In this document: positions 30,461 to 62,118 of the stretch, one piece after another
Layout: each line of letters opens with the position of its first letter
Numbering within the stretch: the stretch's first letter is position 1
Virus record (IMG/VR): IMGVR_UViG_3300020129_000380
Coordinates: 1 to 63,349 of that record
Length of the DNA: 63,349 nucleotides
Strand: one strand, 5' to 3'
DNA from: a virus
Taxonomy: Duplodnaviria; Caudoviricetes
The notes under the pieces: model-generated
Databases searched by the model: none
Seen by the model: the letters and a program-made list of their open reading frames with translations, nothing else
Told to the model about the DNA's origin: nothing
Position numbers and translations under genes: made by a program

Positions 30461-32130
30461 CCGATATAGGCGAACTCGTTGTACGCATCAAAGCAGATGC
30501 CGCACAGCTTCAGGCGGAGATGAATAAGGCTACCGGAACAGTGAAGCAGTCTGCGGGCCAGATGTCTTCCGCTCTACAATCGGTGAAGGGCACCTTAGAA
30601 GCGTTAGGTATTGCATTTGGTGCCGTGGCTATTGCCGAATTTGGGAAAAAATCCATCGAGGCGGCTTTCAACATCCAGAATCTTGCCGACCGAATCGATT
30701 TTTCTGCAAGCAGTTTATACGCCTTAAGGCCGATCCTCGCCAGCACTGGGTCGAGCGTAGATGAGTTTTCCCACTCCGTCTACATGATGAATAACTTCAT
30801 CCAACAGGCAATTGACGGCAACCCAAAAGCCATCGAAACCCTGAATAAACTCGGCTTATCCGCAACTGCCCTCAAAAATCTTCAGCCAGAAGATGCTATG
30901 AACGCCATGGTCGACGCTATTTACCGTCTTGGCAATATCACCGACCAAACCGCCGCTGGCAGGGAGGTCTTCAGTCGCCAATGGGCGACCCTGATACCCC
31001 TAATGCTCAAAAGCAAAGGGCATCTCGAAGACTTTATCAACGAAGAAAAAAAGCTCGCCCCCAATGACGCCGATATCAAGCTTGTACATGATTTCTGGGC
31101 GTCCATAGAGGATGGTGCCCTCCACGCTGAAGCCGCAGTCATCAAATTCGGCGCGGCTTTCGCCCGTGCTTCGCTGCTAACCGTACCAGGTGGTGGTGGC
31201 TCCAATTCCCATGTTTCCAACACGCTCCCTTCCGGCGTAATGAATCTAGGCCCCCATGATCCTAATGCCGTTGCTTGGGCACAAAAACAATATGAAGATG
31301 AGCTTAGTGGCAAAGGCAATAACAACAATCTCAACGGCCCGCCCAAAGTTCAGGTCAATCAACTCCAAACATACATCAAGGGATTGCAAGACGAATCGGC
31401 CGCCCTTGATCTCTCCAAACTCCGTCTCATGGAAGTTAAGGCCGAACGCGAAGGGGCCGCCAAGGCCATCGAAGATTATAACAACGGCCTACGCAAATCC
31501 AAAGACCTCACCACGGACGAAATTGAATCCATCGACGCATCCGTGGACGCTTATAACGCCCGCAAGGAAGCTCTCGACAAAATCCACAAGCAAGAAGAAG
31601 AAGAACTGCACATGCAGGCCCAGCTAAAAGCTGAGATCTCCAGTGCTCTTGCACAAGGAATAATGGATTACAAAAACTTCGGTTCTGCCGTGAAAAGCGT
31701 CTTGAGCCAGATTGTAAAGCAGATTATCGAAATGCAGGTCACAACGCCCCTGGTTAAAGGAATCGGCAACCTGTTCGGCGGATTCAGCGGGGGCGGGTTA
31801 TCATCAGGCGGCATGTCAGCCGAAGCTGATTTCACCGGTATCCCCGCTTTCGCCTCCGGCGGCTCCCCGCCCGTCGGAATGCCCTCCCTTGTCGGCGAAA
31901 ATGGCCCCGAACTCTTCGTGCCCAACACCGCCGGCACCATTGTCCCCAACAGCAAAATGGGTGGCATCAGCGTCCAAAACACCTTCATCATGCAGCCAGG
32001 TCTTTCGGAAACCGTAAATGCGGCCGTCATGCGTTCCGCTCCCACCATCATTCAAGCCTCCCATGACAGCGTCATCGCCGCCCTTCAAAAAGGCGGCAGC
32101 GATTCCCGCGTCGCAAGGTTGCGTGCATGA
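30457..32130 (+). CDS. Tape measure protein
   Basis: MTDIGELVVRIKAD start, helical Ala-rich body, FASGG...VGENGPELFVP C-terminal motif. Confidence 0.9.
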   Translation: MTDIGELVVRIKADAAQLQAEMNKATGTVKQSAGQMSSALQSVKGTLEALGIAFGAVAIAEFGKKSIEAAFNIQNLADRIDFSASSLYALRPILASTGSSVDEFSHSVYMMNNFIQQAIDGNPKAIETLNKLGLSATALKNLQPEDAMNAMVDAIYRLGNITDQTAAGREVFSRQWATLIPLMLKSKGHLEDFINEEKKLAPNDADIKLVHDFWASIEDGALHAEAAVIKFGAAFARASLLTVPGGGGSNSHVSNTLPSGVMNLGPHDPNAVAWAQKQYEDELSGKGNNNNLNGPPKVQVNQLQTYIKGLQDESAALDLSKLRLMEVKAEREGAAKAIEDYNNGLRKSKDLTTDEIESIDASVDAYNARKEALDKIHKQEEEELHMQAQLKAEISSALAQGIMDYKNFGSAVKSVLSQIVKQIIEMQVTTPLVKGIGNLFGGFSGGGLSSGGMSAEADFTGIPAFASGGSPPVGMPSLVGENGPELFVPNTAGTIVPNSKMGGISVQNTFIMQPGLSETVNAAVMRSAPTIIQASHDSVIAALQKGGSDSRVARLRA

Positions 32131-33684: not shown

Positions 33685-35865
33685 ATGTGGATTCTCCCGT
33701 TTCTTATTGCGTTCTTTACTCCCACTCCCGCTCACGCTGATCCCGTATCGCTAACCGCCGCAGCCATCGCTGCCGCTGAGTCAATAACCTGGGCCGACGT
33801 TGCCATTTTCGCTCTCAAAACCGTCGCCGCAATGGTCGTGTCTTCGGTCTTGAGCCGCGTCTTTGCCCCGCATCCGAAACAGCCCAACTTCGCCCAAGCT
33901 TCACAGGATTTCGGCGTCATGGTGCGGTCGAGCATCGAAACCCACAAAATCATATATGGCCAGGCGAAAGTCTCTGGTCCGCTGGTCGCCGTCGCAACGA
34001 CAGCCGACACAAATCAGTTCCTACACATGGTCATTGCCCTGGCCGGCCATGAAGTCTCGGAAATCGGCACGATTTACTTTGAAGACGTCCCGCTCAGCGT
34101 CAGCACAGACGGCTGGGTTACGAGCGGAGCCTACCCGAAAACCACTTCCTCAGTTGCCCAATCCATCTCATCCGCCTCCCGCACGGATGGCATAGTCACC
34201 GTCACCACCGGATCTTCGCATGGCTTCAGTGTTGGCGATCAAGTCGTCATCAAAGACCAAAGCGTGGCTTCTTTTAACGGCACGTTCATTATCCTCACCA
34301 CACCCAGCGGAACTACTTTCACCTACGCCACCGGCGGCGACAACGGCTCATCCACGGGCGGGACTGCGACAGATACAACGAACAATTCGGCTACAGACAG
34401 CTACGCCCGCATCAAAAAGTTCCTCGGCGCCGATGACCAGGCTGCGTCGACCGACCTCATCAACGAATTTCCCGGCTGGGATTCCGATCACACACTTTCG
34501 GGAATCGCCTACATCTACATCCGCCTCGAATATAACCGTGATATCTTCACGCAAGGCATTCCAAACGTAAGTGCCGTCGTCAAAGGAAAGAAAGTCTACG
34601 ATCCCCGTACAACCGGCTACGCATGGAGCGACAATGCCGCCCTTTGCATCCGGGATTACCTGACCAGCGATTACGGCTTTAATTGTGACTCAACCGAAAT
34701 CAATGATACCTATTTCACTTCCGCCGCTAACCATTGCGAGGAATCCGTCACCCTCACGACCGGCGGCTCGCAAGACCGTTATACCTGCAACGGCGTACTC
34801 GACACCGCATCCGCCCCAAGCGATAATCTCAATGCCCTCGTTGCCGCTCTGGCAGGAACCGTAACTTACGTTCAAGGCCAATTCCGCTGCCATGCCGGGG
34901 TTTATGACGCTACCGTGGGAGATATCACCACCGCCATGCTCGCCGGGGGAGTCAAGATCCAAGCGAGAACGACGCGCCAGCAACTTTTCAACGCTGTGCA
35001 GGGAACCTACACCGACCCGAACAAGAATTGGCAACCTACCGACTTCCCAGCGGTCACAAATGATACCTACACGGCACAAGACAATCAGCAAATCTTCAAA
35101 GACATCCAACTTCCTTTCACGAACCAGCCCGAAGCTGCCCAACGCATCGCCAAGGTTATTCTCGAACAAGCCCGCCAAGGAATCACCATCGAACTACCTC
35201 TGAAGCATTCGGCGTTGCCCTACGCCGTCTGGGATACCTTTACCTACACCGACCCGGTTTTGGGATGGGACCATAAAGTATTCCGCATCCGCAAACTCAG
35301 CACGACCGGGATAGGACCGATTACCATTTCTGCCCAGGAAGAAGCATCTACCGCGTATGATTGGGATTCCGGCGAAGCGACCACCATTGATTCCGCCCCC
35401 GATACCAACCTTCCAAATCCCTTCTCCGTAAATGTCCCCACCGGGGTTGCGTTCAACTCCCGTGTCATCAGCTCGACTGGCACCGACCAGATTTATGAAC
35501 TCGGCCTCGTCTGGGACAACCACGCCGATTTCTTCGTCTCTCAAGGGGGCAAATTCGAGGTGCAATTCAAGCTTTCCGCCGATTCCGACTGGAAGCCGTC
35601 TTTCGCCGTCGATGGCAACCTCATGTCCACCGATATCGCTGCGGCTTCCATCAACACCAGCTACGACATTCGCATACGAGCACGCAACAATCTCGGCGCC
35701 TCATCTGCATGGGTAACGATTCTCGGAGCAGTCGCAGGCTCATCCGGTGGCGTCGGGACGACCGCCGATTGGACAAATTGGACTAACGCCGTCGGCACAA
35801 CCGCCGATTGGGATAACTGGACGGATGCCGTTGGCACGTCAAATGATTGGGGATTCTTTACATGA
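33685..35865 (+). CDS. Tail tip / central fibre (host-specificity J-like)
   Basis: IIYGQAKVSG, VKGKKVYDPRT..WSDNAALCIRDYL, RYTCNG, C-terminal FN3-like region. Confidence 0.85.
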   Translation: MWILPFLIAFFTPTPAHADPVSLTAAAIAAAESITWADVAIFALKTVAAMVVSSVLSRVFAPHPKQPNFAQASQDFGVMVRSSIETHKIIYGQAKVSGPLVAVATTADTNQFLHMVIALAGHEVSEIGTIYFEDVPLSVSTDGWVTSGAYPKTTSSVAQSISSASRTDGIVTVTTGSSHGFSVGDQVVIKDQSVASFNGTFIILTTPSGTTFTYATGGDNGSSTGGTATDTTNNSATDSYARIKKFLGADDQAASTDLINEFPGWDSDHTLSGIAYIYIRLEYNRDIFTQGIPNVSAVVKGKKVYDPRTTGYAWSDNAALCIRDYLTSDYGFNCDSTEINDTYFTSAANHCEESVTLTTGGSQDRYTCNGVLDTASAPSDNLNALVAALAGTVTYVQGQFRCHAGVYDATVGDITTAMLAGGVKIQARTTRQQLFNAVQGTYTDPNKNWQPTDFPAVTNDTYTAQDNQQIFKDIQLPFTNQPEAAQRIAKVILEQARQGITIELPLKHSALPYAVWDTFTYTDPVLGWDHKVFRIRKLSTTGIGPITISAQEEASTAYDWDSGEATTIDSAPDTNLPNPFSVNVPTGVAFNSRVISSTGTDQIYELGLVWDNHADFFVSQGGKFEVQFKLSADSDWKPSFAVDGNLMSTDIAAASINTSYDIRIRARNNLGASSAWVTILGAVAGSSGGVGTTADWTNWTNAVGTTADWDNWTDAVGTSNDWGFFT
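35752..35852 (+). repeat. 39-bp tandem coding repeat, about 2.6 copies
   Basis: Units start at 35752, 35791 and 35830, encoding VGTTADWTNWTNA / VGTTADWDNWTDA / VGTSNDWG. Confidence 0.8.
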
Positions 35866-36842
35866 CGACAGCGACACAAACACAAATCCGCAGAGATACA
35901 GCGACCAATTTGACTGCCGCCACTCCCGCATCCGGAGAATTAGGTTACGACACCACGAACAAGCGTCTTGTCATCGGGGATGGATCTACCGCGGGTGGTA
36001 TCAAATGCACCATGGCCAAAGACCTGCAAAACCAAACATTCATCGCAGGAACCGTGGGCGGTACAGGCGATGTCATCACTTTGACGAATTCGCCCGCCAT
36101 CACCGCCTACGCTTCAAACCAGAAATTCAGCTTCAAAGCCGGGGCCTCAAATACGACGGCTGCCACCATAAACGTTGATGGACTCGGTGCGAAGAACATC
36201 AAGAAAATGCTCGACAATGCTCTTGCTTCTCTCGTCGCGAACGACATCATCAGCGGCGGCGAATATGAAATCATATACGATGGCACGCAGTTCCAAATAT
36301 TGGGCTTGCCCAACAAAACCCCTTCGGTCGGCGCACTGGTTTATCTCGGCACATTCACGGCCAGCGGCAGCGCAACCCTCGACATCACCAGTGCAATCTC
36401 GTCCACTTACAATGATTATAGACTCGTCCTCGACAATCTCTTACCAGCCAGTGTAGGCGTGAACCTTTTAATCCGGATGAGTTCCGACAACGGATCGAGC
36501 TTCGACAGTGCGGCACATTATGCCGCTGTTACCAGCGGTTTCGTTTCCAGTAGCTCCACTGCTACCATCAACAATCAAAACGGTGCCTCATCCATACGGG
36601 CCGTGACGACCATCGGATCGGGTTCTAAGGTGTCCGGAACTATCGATCTCTTTGCTGTGAACACCGCCACCTTCCAATCAGTTGACATAAATCTAGCTAT
36701 TACTGACGGCACTAACGCCACCGCTTCTAAGGGCGCGGGCATGTGGTCGAATTCCGCCGCTTACAACGCCGTGCAATTCCTCATGTCCAGCGGCAATATT
36801 ACATCTGGTAACGTCAAAATCTACGGCATTGCAAAAGCATGA
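35862..36842 (+). CDS. Tail fibre with Mtd-like N-terminal domain
   Basis: QIRRDT...GELGYDTTNKRLVIGDGSTAGG; C-terminal AVQFLMSSGNITSG.VKIYG. Confidence 0.8.
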   Translation: MTTATQTQIRRDTATNLTAATPASGELGYDTTNKRLVIGDGSTAGGIKCTMAKDLQNQTFIAGTVGGTGDVITLTNSPAITAYASNQKFSFKAGASNTTAATINVDGLGAKNIKKMLDNALASLVANDIISGGEYEIIYDGTQFQILGLPNKTPSVGALVYLGTFTASGSATLDITSAISSTYNDYRLVLDNLLPASVGVNLLIRMSSDNGSSFDSAAHYAAVTSGFVSSSSTATINNQNGASSIRAVTTIGSGSKVSGTIDLFAVNTATFQSVDINLAITDGTNATASKGAGMWSNSAAYNAVQFLMSSGNITSGNVKIYGIAKA

Positions 36843-39849: not shown

Positions 39850-40032
39850 TCAGCCTGCATTCAGCGAAGATAAATGCCCTTCCACATCCTTTTCTTTCCA
39901 GCGGATCAACTTCCGATTGAAACGGATCGGCTTAGGAAATTCCTTACGTTGAACCATCCTATCGAGCGTCCTTTTATCCACACCTAGCATTGTGGCGACT
40001 TGCTCGCGGGTCAATAATTGCTGCTCAGACAT
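39850..40032 (-). CDS. AlpA/excisionase-like HTH protein
   Basis: LLTREQVATMLGVDKRTLDRMV...FPKPIR...IRW. Confidence 0.85.
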   Translation of the reverse strand: MSEQQLLTREQVATMLGVDKRTLDRMVQRKEFPKPIRFNRKLIRWKEKDVEGHLSSLNAG

Positions 40033-40936
40033 GGCGATGCCTTATGGACGATATGAGGGATAACGCAATACACGACAGCCCAATCATGCCGGTAATCGGC
40101 TCCGGAACTGGATAAAAGATGTTGGCGAGCATGATAACCGCCAAAGCTCCGATTCCATAATGTGCCCCGTGTTCAAGGTAAATATACTCTTTCAGCGTCC
40201 CGCCCCGGACAAGATACAGCGTTAGTGACCGGATGACAAAAGCACCCATCCCAAGGCCGATCATAATCAGAACGATATTCGTGGTCAGGGCGAAAGCTCC
40301 GATCACCCCATCGAGCGAGCAGCTTGCGTCCAGCACTTCGAGATAGAGAAGCCCCATCAGGCCGCGTTTGTTCTCGCATCCGCCGTCGGTATCGAAAAGG
40401 CCAGTAAAAGCCTCAATCAGCATATATGTGCCAATGCCAAGCAAACCTGACAGCAGGCAAGTCATTCGCCCTTGAAGCGTGGGAATGAAATATTGAATGC
40501 CAACGAGGACAGCTCCGGCAACGATAATTTCCACCCCCTTAAGTAGCCCAAGCGTGGATAGGCGGCTTTCGATCCAATGCAGCCAATGGGTTTCGCGTTC
40601 GTTATCGAACCAAAAGCTCAGGAATACCATCAAAAGGAATATTCCGCCGAAGGTCGAGACGTTGATTCTGGATTCTTCCAAATGTCGGCCATATTCTTCT
40701 GGCGAGTTAAGTGCCATATTGATGACATCGATCACCGGTAGCGAAGCGGCAATTGTGACGATCAAGACCGGGAATACCAAACGCATACCGAATACAGCGA
40801 TCACAATGCCCCAGGTTAGGAATCGACGTTGCCATTTCGCGGACATGCCCTGTAAAATTTTGGCATTGAGAACAGCGTTGTCGAATGAAAGCGATACCTC
40901 CATGAAAGCCAGAAGGATAAGGGTGAAGACGATCAT
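40025..40936 (-). CDS. DUF475 (TerC-like) membrane protein
   Basis: EVSLSFDNAVLNA, IAVFGMRLVFP, YLEVLDASCSLDGVIGAFA, YLEHGAHYGIG. Confidence 0.9.
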   Translation of the reverse strand: MIVFTLILLAFMEVSLSFDNAVLNAKILQGMSAKWQRRFLTWGIVIAVFGMRLVFPVLIVTIAASLPVIDVINMALNSPEEYGRHLEESRINVSTFGGIFLLMVFLSFWFDNERETHWLHWIESRLSTLGLLKGVEIIVAGAVLVGIQYFIPTLQGRMTCLLSGLLGIGTYMLIEAFTGLFDTDGGCENKRGLMGLLYLEVLDASCSLDGVIGAFALTTNIVLIMIGLGMGAFVIRSLTLYLVRGGTLKEYIYLEHGAHYGIGALAVIMLANIFYPVPEPITGMIGLSCIALSLISSIRHRHV

Positions 40937-41015
40937 TTTCCCCACCACCGAACGAACCTGATGGCTTGATAAAGCAAGAAGCAAACCCCCAGGAATATGA
41001 GTAAATCCAACATAA

Positions 41016-41240
41016 TCATCGGCGGCACTCCCCACCAACAGCCGACAAGGGAAGGCACGACAGCCCCCCTTGCTTGCTATCAGCGTCGAGAAAGCATACC
41101 GCCTCGTAACCGCCGGGCTTGCACACTGCGTATACGCCCGTCAGCGTCACCATACGTTTGAAGCCGCCCGCCCCCATCATGCCCCAGGTGCCGAAAATGA
41201 TGACGAGCACGACAAGACTTAAGGACGCCCAAAGCTTCAT
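41016..41240 (-). CDS. Small membrane-anchored Cys-containing protein
   Basis: N-terminal TM segment; in ter operon. Confidence 0.55.
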   Translation of the reverse strand: MKLWASLSLVVLVIIFGTWGMMGAGGFKRMVTLTGVYAVCKPGGYEAVCFLDADSKQGGLSCLPLSAVGGECRR

Positions 41241-42747: not shown

Positions 42748-42775
42748 TTGACATTTCGTGCCGATTTCGTAGGAT
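42748..42775 (+). promoter_or_regulatory. Promoter upstream of the tRNA fragment
   Basis: TTGACA-N16-TAGGAT ending 14 bp before the tRNA 5' end. Confidence 0.65.
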
Positions 42776-42789
42776 ATGGCGTGATCTTT

Positions 42790-42829
42790 TGGGGTATAGT
42801 GTAACGGTAGCACAACTGACTCTGACTCA
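42790..42829 (+). pseudogene. 5' half of tRNA-Gln(CTG) (att core)
   Basis: TGGGGTATAGTGTAACGGTAGCACAACTGACTCTGACTCA: acceptor 5' strand, D arm and anticodon loop CTCTGAC; no T arm follows. Confidence 0.85.
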
Positions 42830-42927
42830 TCCCCGACGCATTCAGATTCCGCAGAAAACACTGCAAAAATGAAGATGCTTGCCTAAAGATGCCTAAACGG
42901 TGTCAATTTGGTGTCTGTTTTGAAAAA

Positions 42928-44151
42928 CTACCTCTCCCGCTCCCCGTTTTTCTTGAGCCGCAGCTTTTCGGCCAGGCCCCCAAGGACTTCATCCGCCGTC
43001 CGCTTTTTCTCCGTCCCCGTGTAATACCGCATCATGACCTCCGGCGTTACGTCGAATGCCGCCGCGGCCCGTTTTGGGTTGATGTCCGCTTCAGCTGCAC
43101 GAGTGAATGCGGCCTTCCGAAAATCATGGCTGGAAAAATCCCGCCCCGTTTCCTTTTGATACGTCTGCATCGTTTGCTCGACCCAGCGATAGAGCCGACC
43201 TGGAGAGAACTCCGGATTCTGCCGATGGACGGGAAACCCCTTTGCTACATTCGCCGCGATCAATTCGGCAGGATACCTCTCCCAAAGATACGTCTCTCCC
43301 TTGTAAGACTCCAAAGCTGCATAAACATCCTCGGGAAGAATCGCATAGCGTTCTGAGCGATTCTTCGTTACGTCCGCAGGGAAGACAAGCCGCCCGTCTT
43401 GAAGTTGAACAGAGCGAAGGTTGCAAAGATCCTCAAGCCGGCAGCCGGTGAGGGCCTTGACGTCGAAAAAGAGTTGCGGCATCGCCCAGCCGGGATAACG
43501 ATTCCCCAGCCAATCGTAGAAATGTTGCACGTCATCCGAGCTTACGTATTTGACTTCGTGCCGGTCGAGCTTCGGCGCCATGACTTCCGAAAAGGGATTT
43601 TCCTTTACCAGCTTCAGATCCCGAAGCCACGAGAACACCGCCTTTAGCGTGACGACGCGGCTATGGACCGACTTCGCCTCATGTTTCTTTCCATGATGAC
43701 TCTCTGTCGCGTATTTCGTCTTGAAGCGTGCCGCCAACTCCGGCGTCACCTCGGCAGGTCCTTTCGTCGTGAACATCGCCTTGAGCTTGCCCAGCGTCTC
43801 CAGGTAGCCCTTGATCGTATTCGGACGTTTGCCGTCAGCTTCCATTTCTTCCTTCAGCCGCTCTTCCGCCTCTTCCCAGCAGACACCCTCTTGGCTTTGC
43901 ACGACAACCGGCTTCGCTTGTCCGTATGCTTCGAGAATGATTTGCTGTGCCGCGTCGATCGCCGCCGCTTTTTTTACCTGGCCGGTGCCTCGCCGTACTT
44001 GGCCTTCAGGCCCTTTAAAGCGGACATACCAATCGTTAGTACGCTCTGGACGCGAATAAAGTGCGAACCTAATCCGCCGCCCATCGGGCAATACGACATG
44101 ATTTCTTTGCCACATCTTCAACGACTTATACCTATGTGGATTGGGTGTCAA
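42928..44151 (-). CDS. int: Tyrosine integrase
   Basis: TGCRLEDL (R), TKNR (K), HDFRK (HxxR), MMRYY (Y). Confidence 0.92.
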   Translation of the reverse strand: MTPNPHRYKSLKMWQRNHVVLPDGRRIRFALYSRPERTNDWYVRFKGPEGQVRRGTGQVKKAAAIDAAQQIILEAYGQAKPVVVQSQEGVCWEEAEERLKEEMEADGKRPNTIKGYLETLGKLKAMFTTKGPAEVTPELAARFKTKYATESHHGKKHEAKSVHSRVVTLKAVFSWLRDLKLVKENPFSEVMAPKLDRHEVKYVSSDDVQHFYDWLGNRYPGWAMPQLFFDVKALTGCRLEDLCNLRSVQLQDGRLVFPADVTKNRSERYAILPEDVYAALESYKGETYLWERYPAELIAANVAKGFPVHRQNPEFSPGRLYRWVEQTMQTYQKETGRDFSSHDFRKAAFTRAAEADINPKRAAAAFDVTPEVMMRYYTGTEKKRTADEVLGGLAEKLRLKKNGERER

Positions 44152-45031: not shown

Positions 45032-45250
45032 TCACCGCTTGAAAAACAGGCTGGCGACCTTCAAGCCGCCCATCGCAGCCTTGCCCATCATCTCCCGGCG
45101 TTTGGCGCCTTCTTCAGCCTCTTGGGCTTTCAGCCGTTGGTAGGCTTCAGGTTCTTTCAAGAGCAGGTAAAGGGGAAACACCACCTTGACCGCCACGATG
45201 ACCAAAATAATCAAAATCACAAGTCCCGCTTCCATCGCTCTATCCCTCAA
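45032..45250 (-). CDS. Small membrane protein
   Basis: N-terminal TM segment; in IME operon. Confidence 0.55.
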   Translation of the reverse strand: MRDRAMEAGLVILIILVIVAVKVVFPLYLLLKEPEAYQRLKAQEAEEGAKRREMMGKAAMGGLKVASLFFKR

Positions 45251-45302
45251 GATGCCCGAGGCCAGTTCGCCTACACAGCTAGTGACCCCGGGCGACCATG
45301 TG

Positions 45303-45617
45303 TTACATTGACATTCCGCCCCGACTCATTTCGGGCTGATCGATTTCGTGTGATTGCGAAATCTCGGGTTGTTGCACTTCGACGCTCGGCTGCCCTACTT
45401 GATGCGGATACATGACGAATCCACTTCCATTGAACAGCCCGGCGGCGATCTCCGACGCCCCGAGGGGAATCAGGTGGTCGGCTGCCTGTCCCATCCCCTC
45501 AAAAAGCGTTCCCGCGACTGTGGCGACACCGCCCAGAAACGCCCCCACACCCTCCTTGATACCCTCCGTCACAGCTTCCGTTGCCGTGATGCTCTGAAAT
45601 TCCTCTTGCGGACTCAT
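45303..45617 (-). CDS. Hypothetical IME protein
   Basis: ATGA overlap with T4CP; GASEIAAGLFNG motif; SRGGMSM C-terminus resembles T4SS-substrate tails. Confidence 0.6.
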   Translation of the reverse strand: MSPQEEFQSITATEAVTEGIKEGVGAFLGGVATVAGTLFEGMGQAADHLIPLGASEIAAGLFNGSGFVMYPHQVGQPSVEVQQPEISQSHEIDQPEMSRGGMSM

Positions 45618-47317
45618 CGAAACCCTCCCTTCATGAAATGCGTGGCCATGGCAGTGCCTACGAGGCACAAAAACACCGTGCCAAGCATCAACAGAAACGA
45701 CCCAAACATATGCGACTTTTGCCCTTTGAGCAGCCATTTGTCGCTGTAGTATTTCACGAGCTTAACTTTTATCGGCCGCGTCGAGGGGCAGAACACTATG
45801 GCCTCATCCGCCGGCGTTTGCAGCACTTCGTCAGCGGTTGCCAGCTCCCTCTTATGCTGAGTAAGTGTCTCAGACTTATTCTTGCCCCAGTTCATCCCCC
45901 AGCTCACATCCCTGCCATTTGACGATGAGCTTCCCGAGCTACGGCCATTCTGCCACGACTCACATAAAACCGTAGCGGAGCCTAGGCGCTTGCTTATATA
46001 TTCCGCCGTGCCGTTGTTTTTCTCGATTCCCATCGAGTTCACGCCGAAGAAAATCTGCGTCACGTTCGACATAAACGTTTCTTCCTGGCCAGGGAAACAT
46101 TTAGCCACCTGATTCACGCTCTGAAAAAACCAGTGGCAACGCACACCGTAACCTGCACCTTTATCAAGAGCCTCATCCACCACATCCATATGGCCGAGCT
46201 TCGCCGCCTCATCGAAGATGAAGTGCGTTTTACGCCTCTCCTGAAGCCCCCCTCTCATCGCCGCCTTTAACATCACACCTATGACCATCCTCACCCACGG
46301 CTCCAGCACTTTGGAATGCTCTAACGACGGCACAATGTAGACCGTCATGGGTTTTGACAGGGGAACGAACGAACTCGTCCGGGAGTTTTCGGCGATTCTC
46401 TCAGAGTCCAAAAACCGCATAAACCTCGCCGTCGTCGTTAATGTCGAGCCCTTTTCCTCCCCCATGAAAAAAGACAATTGATTGCCCATTCTCTGCAACA
46501 TTCCTCCGGATCGTTTCATTACCTCGATGGCGATTTTTAGCTTTTCCGGGCTGGTGAGTATGTCCTGCACGGCCTGTAGGTTCCTGTGACTCTGGTCAGC
46601 GTGAGTCATGGTGGTCGCGATAATGGCCGATATGAACATCTCCGCCGTATCCTTGAAATGGCCGGAATTTCCGTCTTCTTTTTCCTCCCGGATGACAAAG
46701 CTTTTCGCCAGATCCTTGGCGTCATCGAGTTCCTTTGCGAAGCTCAATGGGTTTAACGTCGCCGATTCAAAGGGAATCTTGCCGTGTAGTGTCCTATGGG
46801 GGTCGATAACATGCACCTCACCGAACCGGCGCCGGTAGGCCGCTGTAAGGAGGGCGAGTTCGCCCTTGTAATCAATCACCACTTGCGAATCCGGGCAGGT
46901 CAAAAGATGAGGCAATATGATCGACACACCCTTCCCCGACCGGGTTGGCGCACACGTACAGGTGTGAATCGCCTTGGTTAACCGTACAACCAGCTTGTCC
47001 TTGTTAAACGCGGCGATGGCCTCCCTGTTGGGAATACTCATATCCAAAAGCCCCAGCACCGCCGATTTGCGGGGAGCATGGGGGAGCGCTCCCACAATCA
47101 ACCCTTCCCTTGCGTTAATCATCCCCCGCAAATCCTTCCGCTCCGCCCACCTCGCTGTCCCATGTTTCCACCAGTTGGCCTTTGGTTTCACCAGGGCGAC
47201 TATCCCCGCCAGCACGAAGATAAGCGACCATGGCAACCCCACCACACCGGCGATGGTCACGAGGTAAATCATGCCCAAAACGTAAACCTGAAGCATCTTT
47301 CGTGAAATCCAGAACAT
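45614..47317 (-). CDS. Type IV coupling protein (VirD4/TraG family)
   Basis: N-terminal TMs, HGTARWA, Walker A APTRSGKG, IDYKGEL, Walker B FIFDEAAKLG. Confidence 0.92.
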   Translation of the reverse strand: MFWISRKMLQVYVLGMIYLVTIAGVVGLPWSLIFVLAGIVALVKPKANWWKHGTARWAERKDLRGMINAREGLIVGALPHAPRKSAVLGLLDMSIPNREAIAAFNKDKLVVRLTKAIHTCTCAPTRSGKGVSIILPHLLTCPDSQVVIDYKGELALLTAAYRRRFGEVHVIDPHRTLHGKIPFESATLNPLSFAKELDDAKDLAKSFVIREEKEDGNSGHFKDTAEMFISAIIATTMTHADQSHRNLQAVQDILTSPEKLKIAIEVMKRSGGMLQRMGNQLSFFMGEEKGSTLTTTARFMRFLDSERIAENSRTSSFVPLSKPMTVYIVPSLEHSKVLEPWVRMVIGVMLKAAMRGGLQERRKTHFIFDEAAKLGHMDVVDEALDKGAGYGVRCHWFFQSVNQVAKCFPGQEETFMSNVTQIFFGVNSMGIEKNNGTAEYISKRLGSATVLCESWQNGRSSGSSSSNGRDVSWGMNWGKNKSETLTQHKRELATADEVLQTPADEAIVFCPSTRPIKVKLVKYYSDKWLLKGQKSHMFGSFLLMLGTVFLCLVGTAMATHFMKGGFR

Positions 47318-55007: not shown

Positions 55008-55502
55008 TTAAACGTGTTTCCACATTTGTCGCGAAATTACCCTTGAGATCGTCGTTGGGCTGCATCCATATTGCACGGCCATCAGATCCTGCGATACTTC
55101 CGCAGCCTTCGCCCTGATCTCCAACACCTTCCTCTCATTCAACTTTGCCTTGCCATGTCGGCTGCCACGATTGCTTAGACCCAGCATCACGGCATGTTGA
55201 CTGTTCTCAAGGTTAGTGAGGTATTCGAGATTACTCGCCCAATTCAATCCCTTTCGGCCATTGCGGTGATTGATCGTAAGCCCTAATGGACGCGGCCCGA
55301 TGAAAGCAAACGCCACAAGTGCGTGAACAAGGTGATGTTTTTGCTGATTACGACTATTCAGACAGACACGCTCGTACCCGCAATTCTTATAGGTACGCAT
55401 CGGCTTTCGTCGTTTTATTGATTCGACACGTCCGGTATTCGATACGGCATAAAGGTGTTCATAGCCCACAACGGGCTTCCAATATTCAAGCAATAGTGGC
55501 AT
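55008..55502 (-). CDS. NUMOD4-HNH homing endonuclease
   Basis: WKPVVGYE..YAVSNTGRV (NUMOD4); VHALVAFAFIG...INHRNG...NLEY (HNH). Confidence 0.88.
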   Translation of the reverse strand: MPLLLEYWKPVVGYEHLYAVSNTGRVESIKRRKPMRTYKNCGYERVCLNSRNQQKHHLVHALVAFAFIGPRPLGLTINHRNGRKGLNWASNLEYLTNLENSQHAVMLGLSNRGSRHGKAKLNERKVLEIRAKAAEVSQDLMAVQYGCSPTTISRVISRQMWKHV

Positions 55503-55708
55503 ACTCGACTCCTCATCTTTGACAATGAGGAGATTACCCCGTTTCGTGCTTCGGCGCAAGCGGGGTTTTCTTTTGGCGATACCGTTCCGGCCGGTTCCCC
55601 TACGGGTTCGCGTCGCTCCGTGCTTCGCACCGGCCAAGAGGCCGCCTACGGTCAACCTATCGCAAGAAAGTGTTTGACCGGTCCTTCGAGTCGTGCCACC
55701 TTTTCGGC

Positions 55709-59600: not shown

Positions 59601-60239
59601 TCAAACCTGCTTCGGGCATTTCCAAGCGGTGTTTGTCGCCGCCTGCATAAATGCTTCAAACATCCCGATAAACTCCCGCTCGTCCCGATGCCTGCGAAAG
59701 ACATTTACGAACCAATGCACCCATTGCAGATTGCTTATTTCATTCGTGCCTCCCCGTCCTTTCGGCAAGATATGGTCAATTGACGCATCCACTCCCATTA
59801 CCAATCTCACACCGGAATAAGCGCATTTGCCTTCCTGTTGCTGGTAAATAGCCATCAATTCCACCCATTTCTCACGATTGCCCAGCACCGACTTAGCTAA
59901 ACGTTTGCAATGACATGCATCACATATTATTCTCCGCCCTTCGACATCGACCCCACAATCGCCACATAAACCCCTCGCAAGGCGCTTCACCCGACAATGC
60001 CTAACCGTTTTTCTAACCTTATCCCTGCATTCCTTGCAAAACGCATTCCGTTCAATAGGTCTGCCACATCCTACTCGAATACAAACGCCTGCCATAATGG
60101 CTTTCTGCCGCCGCCGCTGGTAACCCGCATTCAGCCTCTTAAAGCAATCGATGCAACGTTGGCGACCACTCACAACCGCTTTCACGCCGCACTCTCTACA
60201 CAGCCCCATAGCTATGCGTTTACGATGCGACTCCCTCAC
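59601..60239 (-). CDS. HNH endonuclease with N-terminal CxxC repeats
   Basis: QEGKCAYSG...SIDHILPKGRGGTNEISNLQWV. Confidence 0.85.
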   Translation of the reverse strand: MRESHRKRIAMGLCRECGVKAVVSGRQRCIDCFKRLNAGYQRRRQKAIMAGVCIRVGCGRPIERNAFCKECRDKVRKTVRHCRVKRLARGLCGDCGVDVEGRRIICDACHCKRLAKSVLGNREKWVELMAIYQQQEGKCAYSGVRLVMGVDASIDHILPKGRGGTNEISNLQWVHWFVNVFRRHRDEREFIGMFEAFMQAATNTAWKCPKQV

Positions 60240-60457
60240 CGATCCCGCCCATTTGGCTCACGCCCGACCTTGGTTTGCCAGTCCGAATGGAGCTTATTTG
60301 CCTCTCCAAAGGCATTCAGGAGGTTCGCCAGAGCCATCAGTCTGTCTTGGTGGCCTTTGTAATCGGGATGCGTTAGAGCGTAGGTTTGGAGGCGCTGTAA
60401 TATCATTACTTCGCCGTTTTTCTGGTAGAATTGCTCCAGAGGATTCTTTTCTTTCAC
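60236..60457 (-). CDS. Hypothetical protein
   Basis: GGAGG RBS; GTGA overlap. Confidence 0.5.
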   Translation of the reverse strand: MKEKNPLEQFYQKNGEVMILQRLQTYALTHPDYKGHQDRLMALANLLNAFGEANKLHSDWQTKVGREPNGRDR

Positions 60458-60507
60458 GCTACCTCCGACCGACCCTTAGCACAATTTCAGATGGTTGTCA
60501 CCCCCAC

Positions 60508-60741
60508 TCATGCGTCCACGACGAGCACCGGCATCTCTCTTTTTACCTTGTACTGCTCGATCCTTTTCAACCGTGCTGCCGGGATATTCCAGATTCTATC
60601 CGCCAGGCTGAACTTGCCCTCCGGCTGAACGTCGTAATGCACATGCTCGCCGTGGCTAATACCCGCCACCCTGCCGACGATCATGTCGTACTTCTGTTGC
60701 AGGGTTACTTTGTCGTGGAGAGAGTAAATATTAAGGGACAT
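60508..60741 (-). CDS. Hypothetical protein
   Basis: GAGG RBS. Confidence 0.55.
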   Translation of the reverse strand: MSLNIYSLHDKVTLQQKYDMIVGRVAGISHGEHVHYDVQPEGKFSLADRIWNIPAARLKRIEQYKVKREMPVLVVDA

Positions 60742-60772
60742 GGGATACCTCGTTGTTTACTTGGTTAATATT

Positions 60773-60849
60773 TGGTGCTGATGGATGGACTCGAACCATC
60801 GGCCTTCGGGTTCGGAACCCGATGTTCTATCCAACTGAACTACATCAGC
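60773..60849 (-). tRNA. tRNA-Arg(CCG)
   Basis: GCTGATG acceptor, GTTC/GAAC D arm, TCGGG-TTCCGAA-CCCGA anticodon arm, GATGG-TTCGAGT-CCATC T arm, encoded ACCA. Confidence 0.92.
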
Positions 60850-60850
60850 G

Positions 60851-61051
60851 TGGCGGCAACAGGCGGGGCTTGATACCCGCTTATGGACGATAGGCGTGGC
60901 ATGAACGCCTAGTTTTACTCCCAAGAGGCGGGGTGATTCGAACACCCGACCTTTGCCTTCGGAGGGCAACGCTCTATCTAGCTGAGCTACGCCCCTTGCC
61001 ATGCACGGACTCGTTCCATTGATTAGTGTGTCCTTCCACACCGCTGTTGCC
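60851..61051 (-). ncRNA. tRNA-shaped ncRNA enclosing a tRNA-Arg
   Basis: GGCAACAG (5') pairs with CTGTTGCC-GCCA (3'); D-like hairpin GTGTG/CACAC; T-like hairpin GCGGG-TATCAAGC-CCCGC. Confidence 0.65.
60923..60996 (-). tRNA. tRNA-Arg(CCG), no encoded CCA
   Basis: AGGGGCG/CGCCTCT acceptor, GCTC/GAGC D arm, TTGCC-CTCCGAA-GGCAA anticodon arm, GGGTG-TTCGAAT-CACCC T arm. Confidence 0.85.
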
Positions 61052-61058
61052 ATAAACA

Positions 61059-61310
61059 TTATGCTGCCCGTCGTTTAGTAGCCACCTTTACCTCACCCCC
61101 TATCAACGAGACGGCCTTTGGCGTCGCCTTCTGCTGCGTATCCATTGTCAGCTTCATTACATCGAAATCCAGACGTGCGGATTGCAGGATACGAGAACTG
61201 AGGGCGCTAATCGCTTGCGCCTGCCGAGGGTCTACCTTACCCTTGCGTACACCGTTGATCGTTTCCAGCAGCATATTCCGTAGGTCTGCGGTATTCTTTA
61301 CGTTTGACAT
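61059..61310 (-). CDS. Hypothetical phage protein
   Basis: AGGAG RBS; LRNMLLETI...AQAISALS..IL.SAR. Confidence 0.65.
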   Translation of the reverse strand: MSNVKNTADLRNMLLETINGVRKGKVDPRQAQAISALSSRILQSARLDFDVMKLTMDTQQKATPKAVSLIGGEVKVATKRRAA

Positions 61311-61656
61311 CAGCTATCTCCTTTTTAAGTGTTTGAGTATTTTCGTGCAGTTTACAAAGCTTTTCATTCCAATTGTACGCAAGCATCAATCCATAGCATT
61401 TCTGGCAATAACCCCTTGTGAATGTCACACCGGTTATCCCGGTGCCTTCCATCCAATAAGGCGATAAGTCCTTCCGTTTCACCTTGCATTTCTTGCATCT
61501 ATCATTCGCCTTTAGCTGCGACCGGTATTGCATTGCGTGCCGATAACAACAAAAGGCATCCTTTACTTTCCCACGCTTGATATCACTCGTTTTCTTCCCT
61601 CCGGCATCTAAGAACATCCGGTTGCAATGCTTGCACCAAAGAAAGGTGTCTTTCAC
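61237..61656 (-). CDS. Cys-rich hypothetical protein
   Basis: Several CxxC motifs. Confidence 0.55.
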   Translation of the reverse strand: MKDTFLWCKHCNRMFLDAGGKKTSDIKRGKVKDAFCCYRHAMQYRSQLKANDRCKKCKVKRKDLSPYWMEGTGITGVTFTRGYCQKCYGLMLAYNWNEKLCKLHENTQTLKKEIADVKRKEYRRPTEYAAGNDQRCTQG

Positions 61657-61920: not shown

Positions 61921-62118
61921 CTACTCCCTCACCCCGTAAAGATAAACAATCTTGTCATTATCACTCATCGTCACCCGCCTTATCAAAGCCGCCTTGGCCG
62001 CTATTTGGGAGGCCGTATAAGAGGGTTCCTCATGATCGATCTTATAATCCAACGTAGCCTTGGTATCGGCGTACCAGCCCGCTGCCATCATGGATAGTCC
62101 TAGAATGAAGTATTTCAT
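61921..62118 (-). CDS. Hypothetical protein
   Basis: AGGAGG RBS. Confidence 0.55.
   Translation of the reverse strand: MKYFILGLSMMAAGWYADTKATLDYKIDHEEPSYTASQIAAKAALIRRVTMSDNDKIVYLYGVRE

Follow-up and report, generated by a model that had tools for sequence, protein, structure and literature searches.

A 201-nt tRNA-framed fold enclosing a complete tRNA-Arg(CCG) in the genome of a temperate phage

Phage tRNA clusters have offered tRNA-like stable RNAs of unknown function ever since T4 species 1 RNA, and the nested tRNAs of large phages are barely understood. In some phages, tRNAs are also enclosed by GOLLD RNA (RF01998), which is several times longer than the element considered here. The role of T4 species 1 RNA (rnaC) is given as unknown (PMC3014915). 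For Lak megaphages, Devoto et al. (2019, PMC6784885) describe tRNA introns that are themselves tRNA-like, that is, nested tRNAs, and phage tRNAs that evade tRNA-targeting defenses have been documented (PMC10264068, PMC11464382). Here, we describe a stretch of 201 nt on the minus strand of a phage genome (61051–60851) that folds as an oversized tRNA ending in CCA, hereafter the shell, around a complete tRNA-Arg(CCG). Our preferred, tentative reading (probability about 0.4) is that the shell is a genuine non-decoding, tRNA-shaped RNA with a build like that of T4 species 1 RNA, carrying a tRNA as its cargo.

The window, meaning the whole stretch of DNA analyzed (63,349 bp), is a complete viral record with direct terminal repeats. 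Its terminase, portal, major head, tape-measure, and integrase genes identify a siphovirus-type temperate phage, which also encodes a type IV coupling protein and a 964-aa helicase/relaxase-like protein; no close relative was found among 50,697 GenBank phage records. A protein at 35847–36842 (+) has an Mtd_N domain (major tropism determinant; E = 2e−14), which hints that it is the target of a diversity-generating retroelement, and a DUF475/TerC-family integral membrane protein (E = 1.5e−100) is phage-borne at 40025–41038 (−). No TROVE, RtcB, or SmpB gene was found in the phage. Around the shell, the stop codon TAA (61061–61059) of an 83-aa gene lies 7 nt upstream, and an HNH endonuclease gene on the same strand follows ~530 nt downstream of the tRNA pair. 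A second homing-type endonuclease gene, with NUMOD4 and HNH_3 domains, occurs at 55008–55655 (−). A 100-aa open frame (60757–61059, −), whose start forms a TAATG overlap with the upstream stop, spans the shell and both tRNAs; since tRNA makes up half of its length, it was considered spurious, and no protein relatives were found (the protein search gave eight candidates, none of which scored).

Table 1. Features of the shell, the two tRNA genes, and the flanking genes
Feature	Position	Strand	Basis
Upstream 83-aa gene	61059..61310	−	phrog_2044, E = 9.8e−7; 30 relatives
Outer acceptor-like helix, 5′ strand GGCAACAG	61044..61051	−	Pair probability 0.96–0.99
D-like hairpin, 5-bp stem, loop GAAGGA	61026..61041	−	Pair probability 0.99–1.00
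Helix X, 5′ strand, AUGGA-A-CGA	61011..61019	−	Pair probability 0.85–0.95
14-nt linker before the inner tRNA	60997..61010	−	Sequence read
Inner tRNA-Arg(CCG), full cloverleaf without CCA	60923..60996	−	Rfam search, 63.6 bits
11-nt linker, 3′ of the inner tRNA	60912..60922	−	Sequence read
Hairpin b, 7-bp stem, loop UCAUGCC	60891..60911	−	Pair probability 0.76–0.77
Helix X, 3′ strand UCGUCCAU	60883..60890	−	Sequence read, pair probabilities
T-like hairpin, 5-bp stem, 8-nt loop UAUCAAGC	60863..60880	−	Pair probability 0.89–0.92
Acceptor 3′ strand CUGUUGCC, discriminator G60854, encoded CCA 60853–60851	60851..60862	−	Sequence read
Downstream canonical tRNA-Arg(CCG), CCA encoded	60773..60849	−	Rfam search, 74.9 bits over 60849–60776
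HNH endonuclease gene	59601..60239	−	phrog_1035, E = 1.3e−13; several HNH families

An initial annotation of this DNA had proposed a nested RNA, and every helix that it listed was recovered on the minus strand where it had been placed, all of them Watson–Crick paired (Table 1). The acceptor-like helix joins GGCAACAG (61051–61044) to CTGTTGCC (60862–60855) by Watson–Crick pairs at 8/8 positions; U61052 directly precedes its 5′ strand, and the T-like hairpin directly abuts its 3′ strand. The D-like stem extends to 6 bp if G61042–U61025 is counted, and helix X (61019–61011 × 60890–60883) is made of 5 + 3 bp with A61014 bulged. The 3′ end of hairpin b abuts helix X with a spacer of 0 nt, and the two can be stacked into a 15-bp composite arm; the inner tRNA, together with both linkers, therefore branches sideways from the 5′ strand of this composite arm. 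According to the initial annotation, hairpin b can also pair through its loop with an upstream GCAUGG, and five Watson–Crick pairs and one G-U pair are indeed available between 60904–60899 and 61004–60999 in the linker (in order, GC, CG, AU, UA, GC, and GU). This pairing would form a pseudoknot whose energy lies outside the folding estimates, and by a hand estimate, a 6-bp loop-to-linker pairing has a chance rate of ~4%. All 33 of 33 outer pairs are intact. The outer helices, taken apart from this pseudoknot, are entirely Watson–Crick without G-U pairs, so their pairing cannot separate an RNA-level from a DNA-level origin.

Whether such a fold exceeds chance was assessed by energy and by descriptor searches. 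The minimum free energy of the 201 nt (−83.3 kcal/mol) is reached with all outer helices kept, giving z = −3.68 with 0/200 shuffles as low; when only the flanks were shuffled and the inner cloverleaf was held fixed, z was −2.5, and 13 of 1000 shuffles reached the observed energy. Pair probabilities of the outer helices were 0.76–1.00 in folding contexts of 201, 501, and 821 nt. A loose tRNA-frame descriptor matched the genome three times, at the shell, at the true downstream tRNA, and at 30937–30626 inside the tape-measure gene, with a mean of 0.38 matches over 60 shuffled genomes. The shell was the sole genome match of a strict descriptor, which gave two matches in 1500 shuffled genomes, a post hoc figure in that the descriptor was fitted after the shell had been seen. 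The direct repeats D1 and D5 are at chance level by a hand estimate. Chance pairing around two ordinary tRNA genes would be in keeping with the match rate of the loose descriptor, with a flank-shuffle z of merely −2.5, and with the commonness of single 8-bp inverted repeats, ten pairs of which were listed in 1 kb. Against this stand the rarity of strict matches in shuffled genomes and the fact that the real match also ends 1 nt before one tRNA and encloses another; chance is therefore a poor explanation, and we regard it as very improbable.

The inner tRNA-Arg(CCG) had been described as complete but lacking CCA, and the Rfam search bore this out. It has several oddities, namely, A at position 18 where G18 is the norm, a G3-U70 pair, U73, and the absent CCA. 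In the ARAGORN drawing (60997–60922), it shares with the outer frame an acceptor of 8 bp and a discriminator G. The downstream tRNA-Arg(CCG) begins 1 nt (C60850) past the GCCA of the shell. This spacing is typical of neighbors in phage tRNA clusters; T4 tRNA-Arg and rnaD are likewise 1 nt apart. It differs from the inner tRNA in its anticodon stem and at position 32 and is of a divergent, phage-like type, whereas the inner copy is host-like. This adjacent gene, the oddities of the inner tRNA, and the abutment of hairpin b on helix X had all been overlooked in the first reading. With the adjacent canonical gene included, the picture becomes one of an odd, host-like copy inside a shell and a normal, phage-type copy beside it.

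The relationships of the inner tRNA were followed further. Across the D arm, the anticodon arm, and the variable region (60991–60948), 44/44 nt agree with tRNA-Arg contigs of environmental origin. These contigs have loose ends that depart from the inner tRNA and that, read by eye on the other strand, give a different T stem and acceptor. Matches from four sequencing runs span only 60928–60991, which is the conserved tRNA core. The combination of the inner D-arm variant with the CCG loop occurred four times in 185,579 GTDB species genomes, in each case in Hyphomicrobiales (Parvibaculum, Methylobacterium, Mesorhizobium, and Methylocystis), and 36/36 nt are common to the inner tRNA and a Methylobacterium fragment. 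By eye, each of the four matches reads as a truncated 5′ remnant of tRNA-Arg(CCG) that departs from it at the anticodon loop or immediately beyond, and no ARAGORN call was obtained for any; the Methylocystis locus also has, 255 nt downstream of the fragment, an intact copy with G18. These four fragments look like integration scars.

The occurrence of the D-arm variant as truncated Hyphomicrobiales fragments raised the idea that the inner tRNA is the attP of the phage. This idea was rejected because the neighbor of the integrase gene is a promoter-bearing 5′ fragment of tRNA-Gln and because no integrase relatives were found in the Hyphomicrobiales fragment loci. The fragment in question (42750–42830, +) derives from a tRNA-Gln(CUG)-type gene and breaks off near the anticodon loop; it is preceded by TTGACA-16-TAGGAT and adjoined by the integrase gene (42928–44151, −), and it is likely to be an attP from which the target tRNA would receive its promoter-side half. 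A related proposition is that the shell acts as DNA, its nested inverted repeats binding proteins at, for example, a recombination site or a transfer origin. Because the outer pairs are all Watson–Crick, both strands would fold alike; GGCAA or its complement occurs five times within the 201 nt by our own count; and the coupling protein and the 964-aa helicase/relaxase-like protein are at hand in the phage. However, the attP-like tRNA-Gln fragment sits by the integrase, 18 kb away, and nothing at the DNA level would account for the tRNA-frame geometry or the GCCA end. A DNA-level site is thus quite improbable in our estimation.

Comparison with known RNA families did not place the shell in any of them, in agreement with the earlier view that it is an unrecognized structured RNA: Infernal searches with Rfam at the gathering score returned only the two tRNAs over the window, and at E ≤ 10 over 60400–61500, the sole non-tRNA match was YrlA (RF02553). 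The YrlA match was rejected because it scores 18 bits where the gathering score is 69 (E = 0.95) and rests on the inner D arm, and the TROVE (Ro) gene that would give it context was not found in the phage. GOLLD resembles the shell as a structured phage RNA with a tRNA inside, but it is larger and has no tRNA frame; neither GOLLD nor ROOL was matched at the gathering score in the window or at E ≤ 10 over 60400–61500.

The acceptor stem of tmRNA carries G3-U70. The initial annotation had set tmRNA aside by this character, correctly, given that the outer stem lacks the pair and has C-G at 3-70. The topology is nevertheless similar, with an acceptor, a D region, a long helix to an inner domain, a T arm, the acceptor again, and CCA, and the shell without the inner tRNA would be a two-piece molecule comparable with the two-piece forms of tmRNA. 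ARAGORN at default settings reported neither a tmRNA nor a tag frame, the Rfam tmRNA families were unmatched at E ≤ 10, and tmRNA was rejected. As for SmpB, which was not found in the phage, the host would supply it.

tRNA-Sec has an 8/5 acceptor/T geometry, G73, a UCA anticodon in a 7-nt loop, a 6-bp D stem, and a 4-nt D loop. The proposed likeness of the shell to tRNA-Sec therefore stands in part: the 8-bp acceptor, the 5-bp T stem, G73, and a possible 6-bp D stem agree with the bacterial form, whereas a UCA anticodon loop is lacking and the D loop has 6 nt rather than 4 nt. Helix X opens into a multiloop, and UCA occurs only at loop positions 1–3 of hairpin b. ARAGORN makes no tRNA-Sec call for the shell, yet it applies the label SeC to a tRNA with anticodon UCA on a related 65-kb contig (G002; L009 1499–1576 (−); L010, G002 45036–45912), and this assignment of the shell was rejected. 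The order on that contig is a 14-bp hairpin, the tRNA(UCA), an HNH-like open frame recognized by eye, and a tRNA-like element (28 bits) whose D arm is odd.

T4 rnaC (NC_000866, 70908–71046), which lies two genes past tRNA-Arg, shares its general build with the shell. Both belong to a phage tRNA cluster, have a T arm beside the 3′ end, and have a large body in place of the anticodon arm, and the ends of rnaC read as pairing into an acceptor-like stem, as in the shell. The T loop of rnaC is the canonical UUCGAAU, whereas that of the shell is the 8-nt UAUCAAGC; the body of rnaC-like RNAs is closed by loop–loop pairing, and a tertiary pairing that closes the body is possible in the shell as well, where only the 6-bp loop-to-linker pairing is available; and rnaC has no tRNA inside, whereas the shell has an inner tRNA, an encoded CCA, and an 8-bp stem. 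Membership in the rnaC family by sequence was rejected: the matches listed by blastn against the 50,697 phage records fell exclusively in tRNA parts, and no such Rfam match was obtained.

As in a canonical tRNA, the acceptor of the shell is set on a 5-bp T stem and followed by a discriminator and CCA (8 bp + 5 bp, G60854). A canonical T loop is 7 nt long and of the UUCRANY type, which the T-like loop of the shell is not. ARAGORN, at default settings and with introns allowed, calls just the two tRNA-Arg genes, and the shell was rejected as a canonical tRNA (RF00005). The Lak megaphage case (PMC6784885) resembles the shell in that one tRNA-shaped element lies within another and is phage-borne; there, the outer, decodable tRNA is split in its anticodon loop by a small insert, whereas in the phage described here, the outer RNA cannot decode and the inner element is a full, CCA-less tRNA carried as a side branch. 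The nested tRNAs of Lak megaphages are thus the precedent for regarding the shell as a decodable outer tRNA with a tRNA-shaped intron, spliced by tRNA-trimming enzymes and a ligase. We consider this scarcely credible. A 7-nt anticodon loop with U33 cannot be assembled across helix X, the inner element is without CCA, RtcB (the sole ligase family searched) was not found in the phage, and ARAGORN allowing introns reported no gene beyond the two for tRNA-Arg.

A different origin for the same arrangement is that a cassette of ~99 nt, consisting of a 14-nt leader, a tRNA-Arg, and an 11-nt trailer, split an older tRNA-like gene by entering its long arm on the 5′ strand, leaving the frame as a recent relic, so that the inner tRNA, the downstream tRNA, or both would alone matter. 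With no gap between hairpin b and helix X, deleting 61010–60912 does leave a continuous arm. When interior deletion variants were generated in silico (n = 2200), ARAGORN called 281 of them tRNAs at a threshold of 80%; the commonest call was “His(atg)” (213 variants), those listed starting at the first base of the shell, and hairpin b apparently serves as the anticodon arm in these calls. The HNH gene ~530 nt downstream and the endonuclease gene at 55008–55655 would also fit an insertion, as would the tRNA followed by an HNH-like open frame (by eye) in the related 65-kb contig and the lack of a tRNA module at this site in the nearest relative of the upstream gene. However, none of the 2200 variants was called at the ARAGORN default or at 90%, indicating that the outer gene was never an ordinary tRNA. 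Moreover, the outer pairs have all remained intact (33/33), the insert is neatly bracketed by helix X and the loop–linker pairing, and an uninterrupted copy was not found in any search. Intact stems combined with non-canonical loops, such as the 8-nt T loop, likewise argue against a slowly decaying ordinary tRNA. On balance, we hold an insertion scar to be somewhat unlikely, but it is the chief competitor of the preferred reading.

Relatives of the shell were sought with its sequence, its structure, and its neighboring proteins. In IMG/VR, an exact 26-nt pattern had no matches, a loop pattern matched 30 stretches, none of which had the stems, and the 20-mer of the inner D arm was found at one unrelated locus. 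At the latter (L013 6257–6375, −), on an 84-kb viral contig, the same 20-nt D arm is followed by unrelated sequence and a 96-nt element called “tRNA-Arg(tct)” by ARAGORN, which may be a tRNA with an insert. blastn against the 50,697 phage records and 72,556 plasmids gave, among the matches listed, only tRNA parts, none of which covers 80% of the query. Searches of IMG/VR and JGI metagenomes with neighbor proteins yielded three distinct related contigs (L004/L002, L005, and L006), which carry a homologue of the upstream gene with neither the shell nor a tRNA beside it; the 65-kb contig G002 is one of the three, and its tRNA(UCA) lies elsewhere. The portal protein search found no relatives, and the HNH protein search gave one match of 23 residues. 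The 3′ part of the shell had 13 weak matches at E ≤ 0.05 in 401 Hyphomicrobiales genomes, where ~20 are expected by chance, and ARAGORN found no tRNA gene in the eight loci scanned out of ten match loci fetched. A covariance model (R1) run over 37 sources (345,339 bases) and five viral records matched only tRNA-Arg parts. The shell is therefore a single example for which no homologues were found, under searches that need near-identity or preselected sequence and that divergent homologues could escape.

The initial annotation had named beforehand the absence of homologues with covarying outer stems as an outcome that would speak against it. Zero homologues were found, by searches that are weak for divergent RNAs, and their absence neither confirms nor kills the shell idea. 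Of its overall interpretation, the tRNA-framed fold around a complete tRNA was upheld, whereas homologues with covarying outer stems were not forthcoming. The functions that it put forward, namely, protecting or releasing the inner tRNA, acting as a decoy for anticodon nucleases, or yielding a two-piece tRNA mimic, are hypothetical.

The flanks of the inner tRNA could also be merely a leader and a trailer that, within a polycistronic transcript, time or protect the maturation of tRNA-Arg and are then degraded. Such a precursor would agree with the strong pairing of the flanks, with an inner tRNA that has no CCA and hence needs endonucleolytic 3′ processing, and with the regulatory context, in which no promoter-like or terminator-like site adjoining the element was found on the minus strand, the closest promoter-like site on that strand being at 61986. 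However, a T-like arm set on the helix, a D-like hairpin, and an encoded GCCA that ends 1 nt short of the following tRNA would be superfluous for leader–trailer pairing, and we judge a role as precursor only to be decidedly unlikely.

For the preferred reading, a tRNA-shaped RNA with a tRNA as cargo, we infer that RNase P, RNase Z, and an exonuclease process the RNA and that it functions as bait or in release. The shell would be transcribed together with the flanking small minus-strand genes. RNase P, reading the stack of acceptor and T arm and the NCCA end, would cut before G61051 and before G60849, and trimming of C60850 would then leave a 201-nt RNA ending in CCA. The CCA-less inner cloverleaf might stay caged, or RNase P and RNase Z might excise the inner tRNA, in which case pieces of 55 nt and 72 nt would be left, joined by 16 bp into a two-piece frame. 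Because the T and D loops are off the consensus of the tRNA elbow, recognition by tRNA enzymes is only predicted. More speculatively, a host-like tRNA-Arg held in this frame could act as bait or as a buffer for a tRNA-directed host factor, with decoding left to the divergent phage-type tRNA-Arg(CCG) next door.

The shell has two known kinds of counterpart, of which it is a variant: the stable, tRNA-like RNAs encoded in phage tRNA clusters and the nested tRNAs of phages. It is rather doubtful that it represents a new kind of phage RNA, which would be a CCA-ended, tRNA-framed cage with a host-type tRNA-Arg(CCG) as a branch, made by the tRNA-processing enzymes of the cell beside a divergent, working tRNA-Arg(CCG), and serving as a bait-plus-spare module against tRNA-directed defenses or as a device for timed tRNA release. 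In this small temperate phage, both themes come together, with a whole tRNA as the cargo of a tRNA-framed RNA and a normal isoacceptor alongside. Should the arrangement prove to be no more than an insertion scar, it would remain a record of tRNA genes inserting into tRNA-like ones. If the RNA is real, it would offer a compact 201-nt substrate for the handling of a tRNA inside a tRNA by RNase P, RNase Z, and the CCA enzyme, and it would bear on the origin of two-piece tRNA mimics and on the use of caged, host-like tRNAs as decoys by phages.
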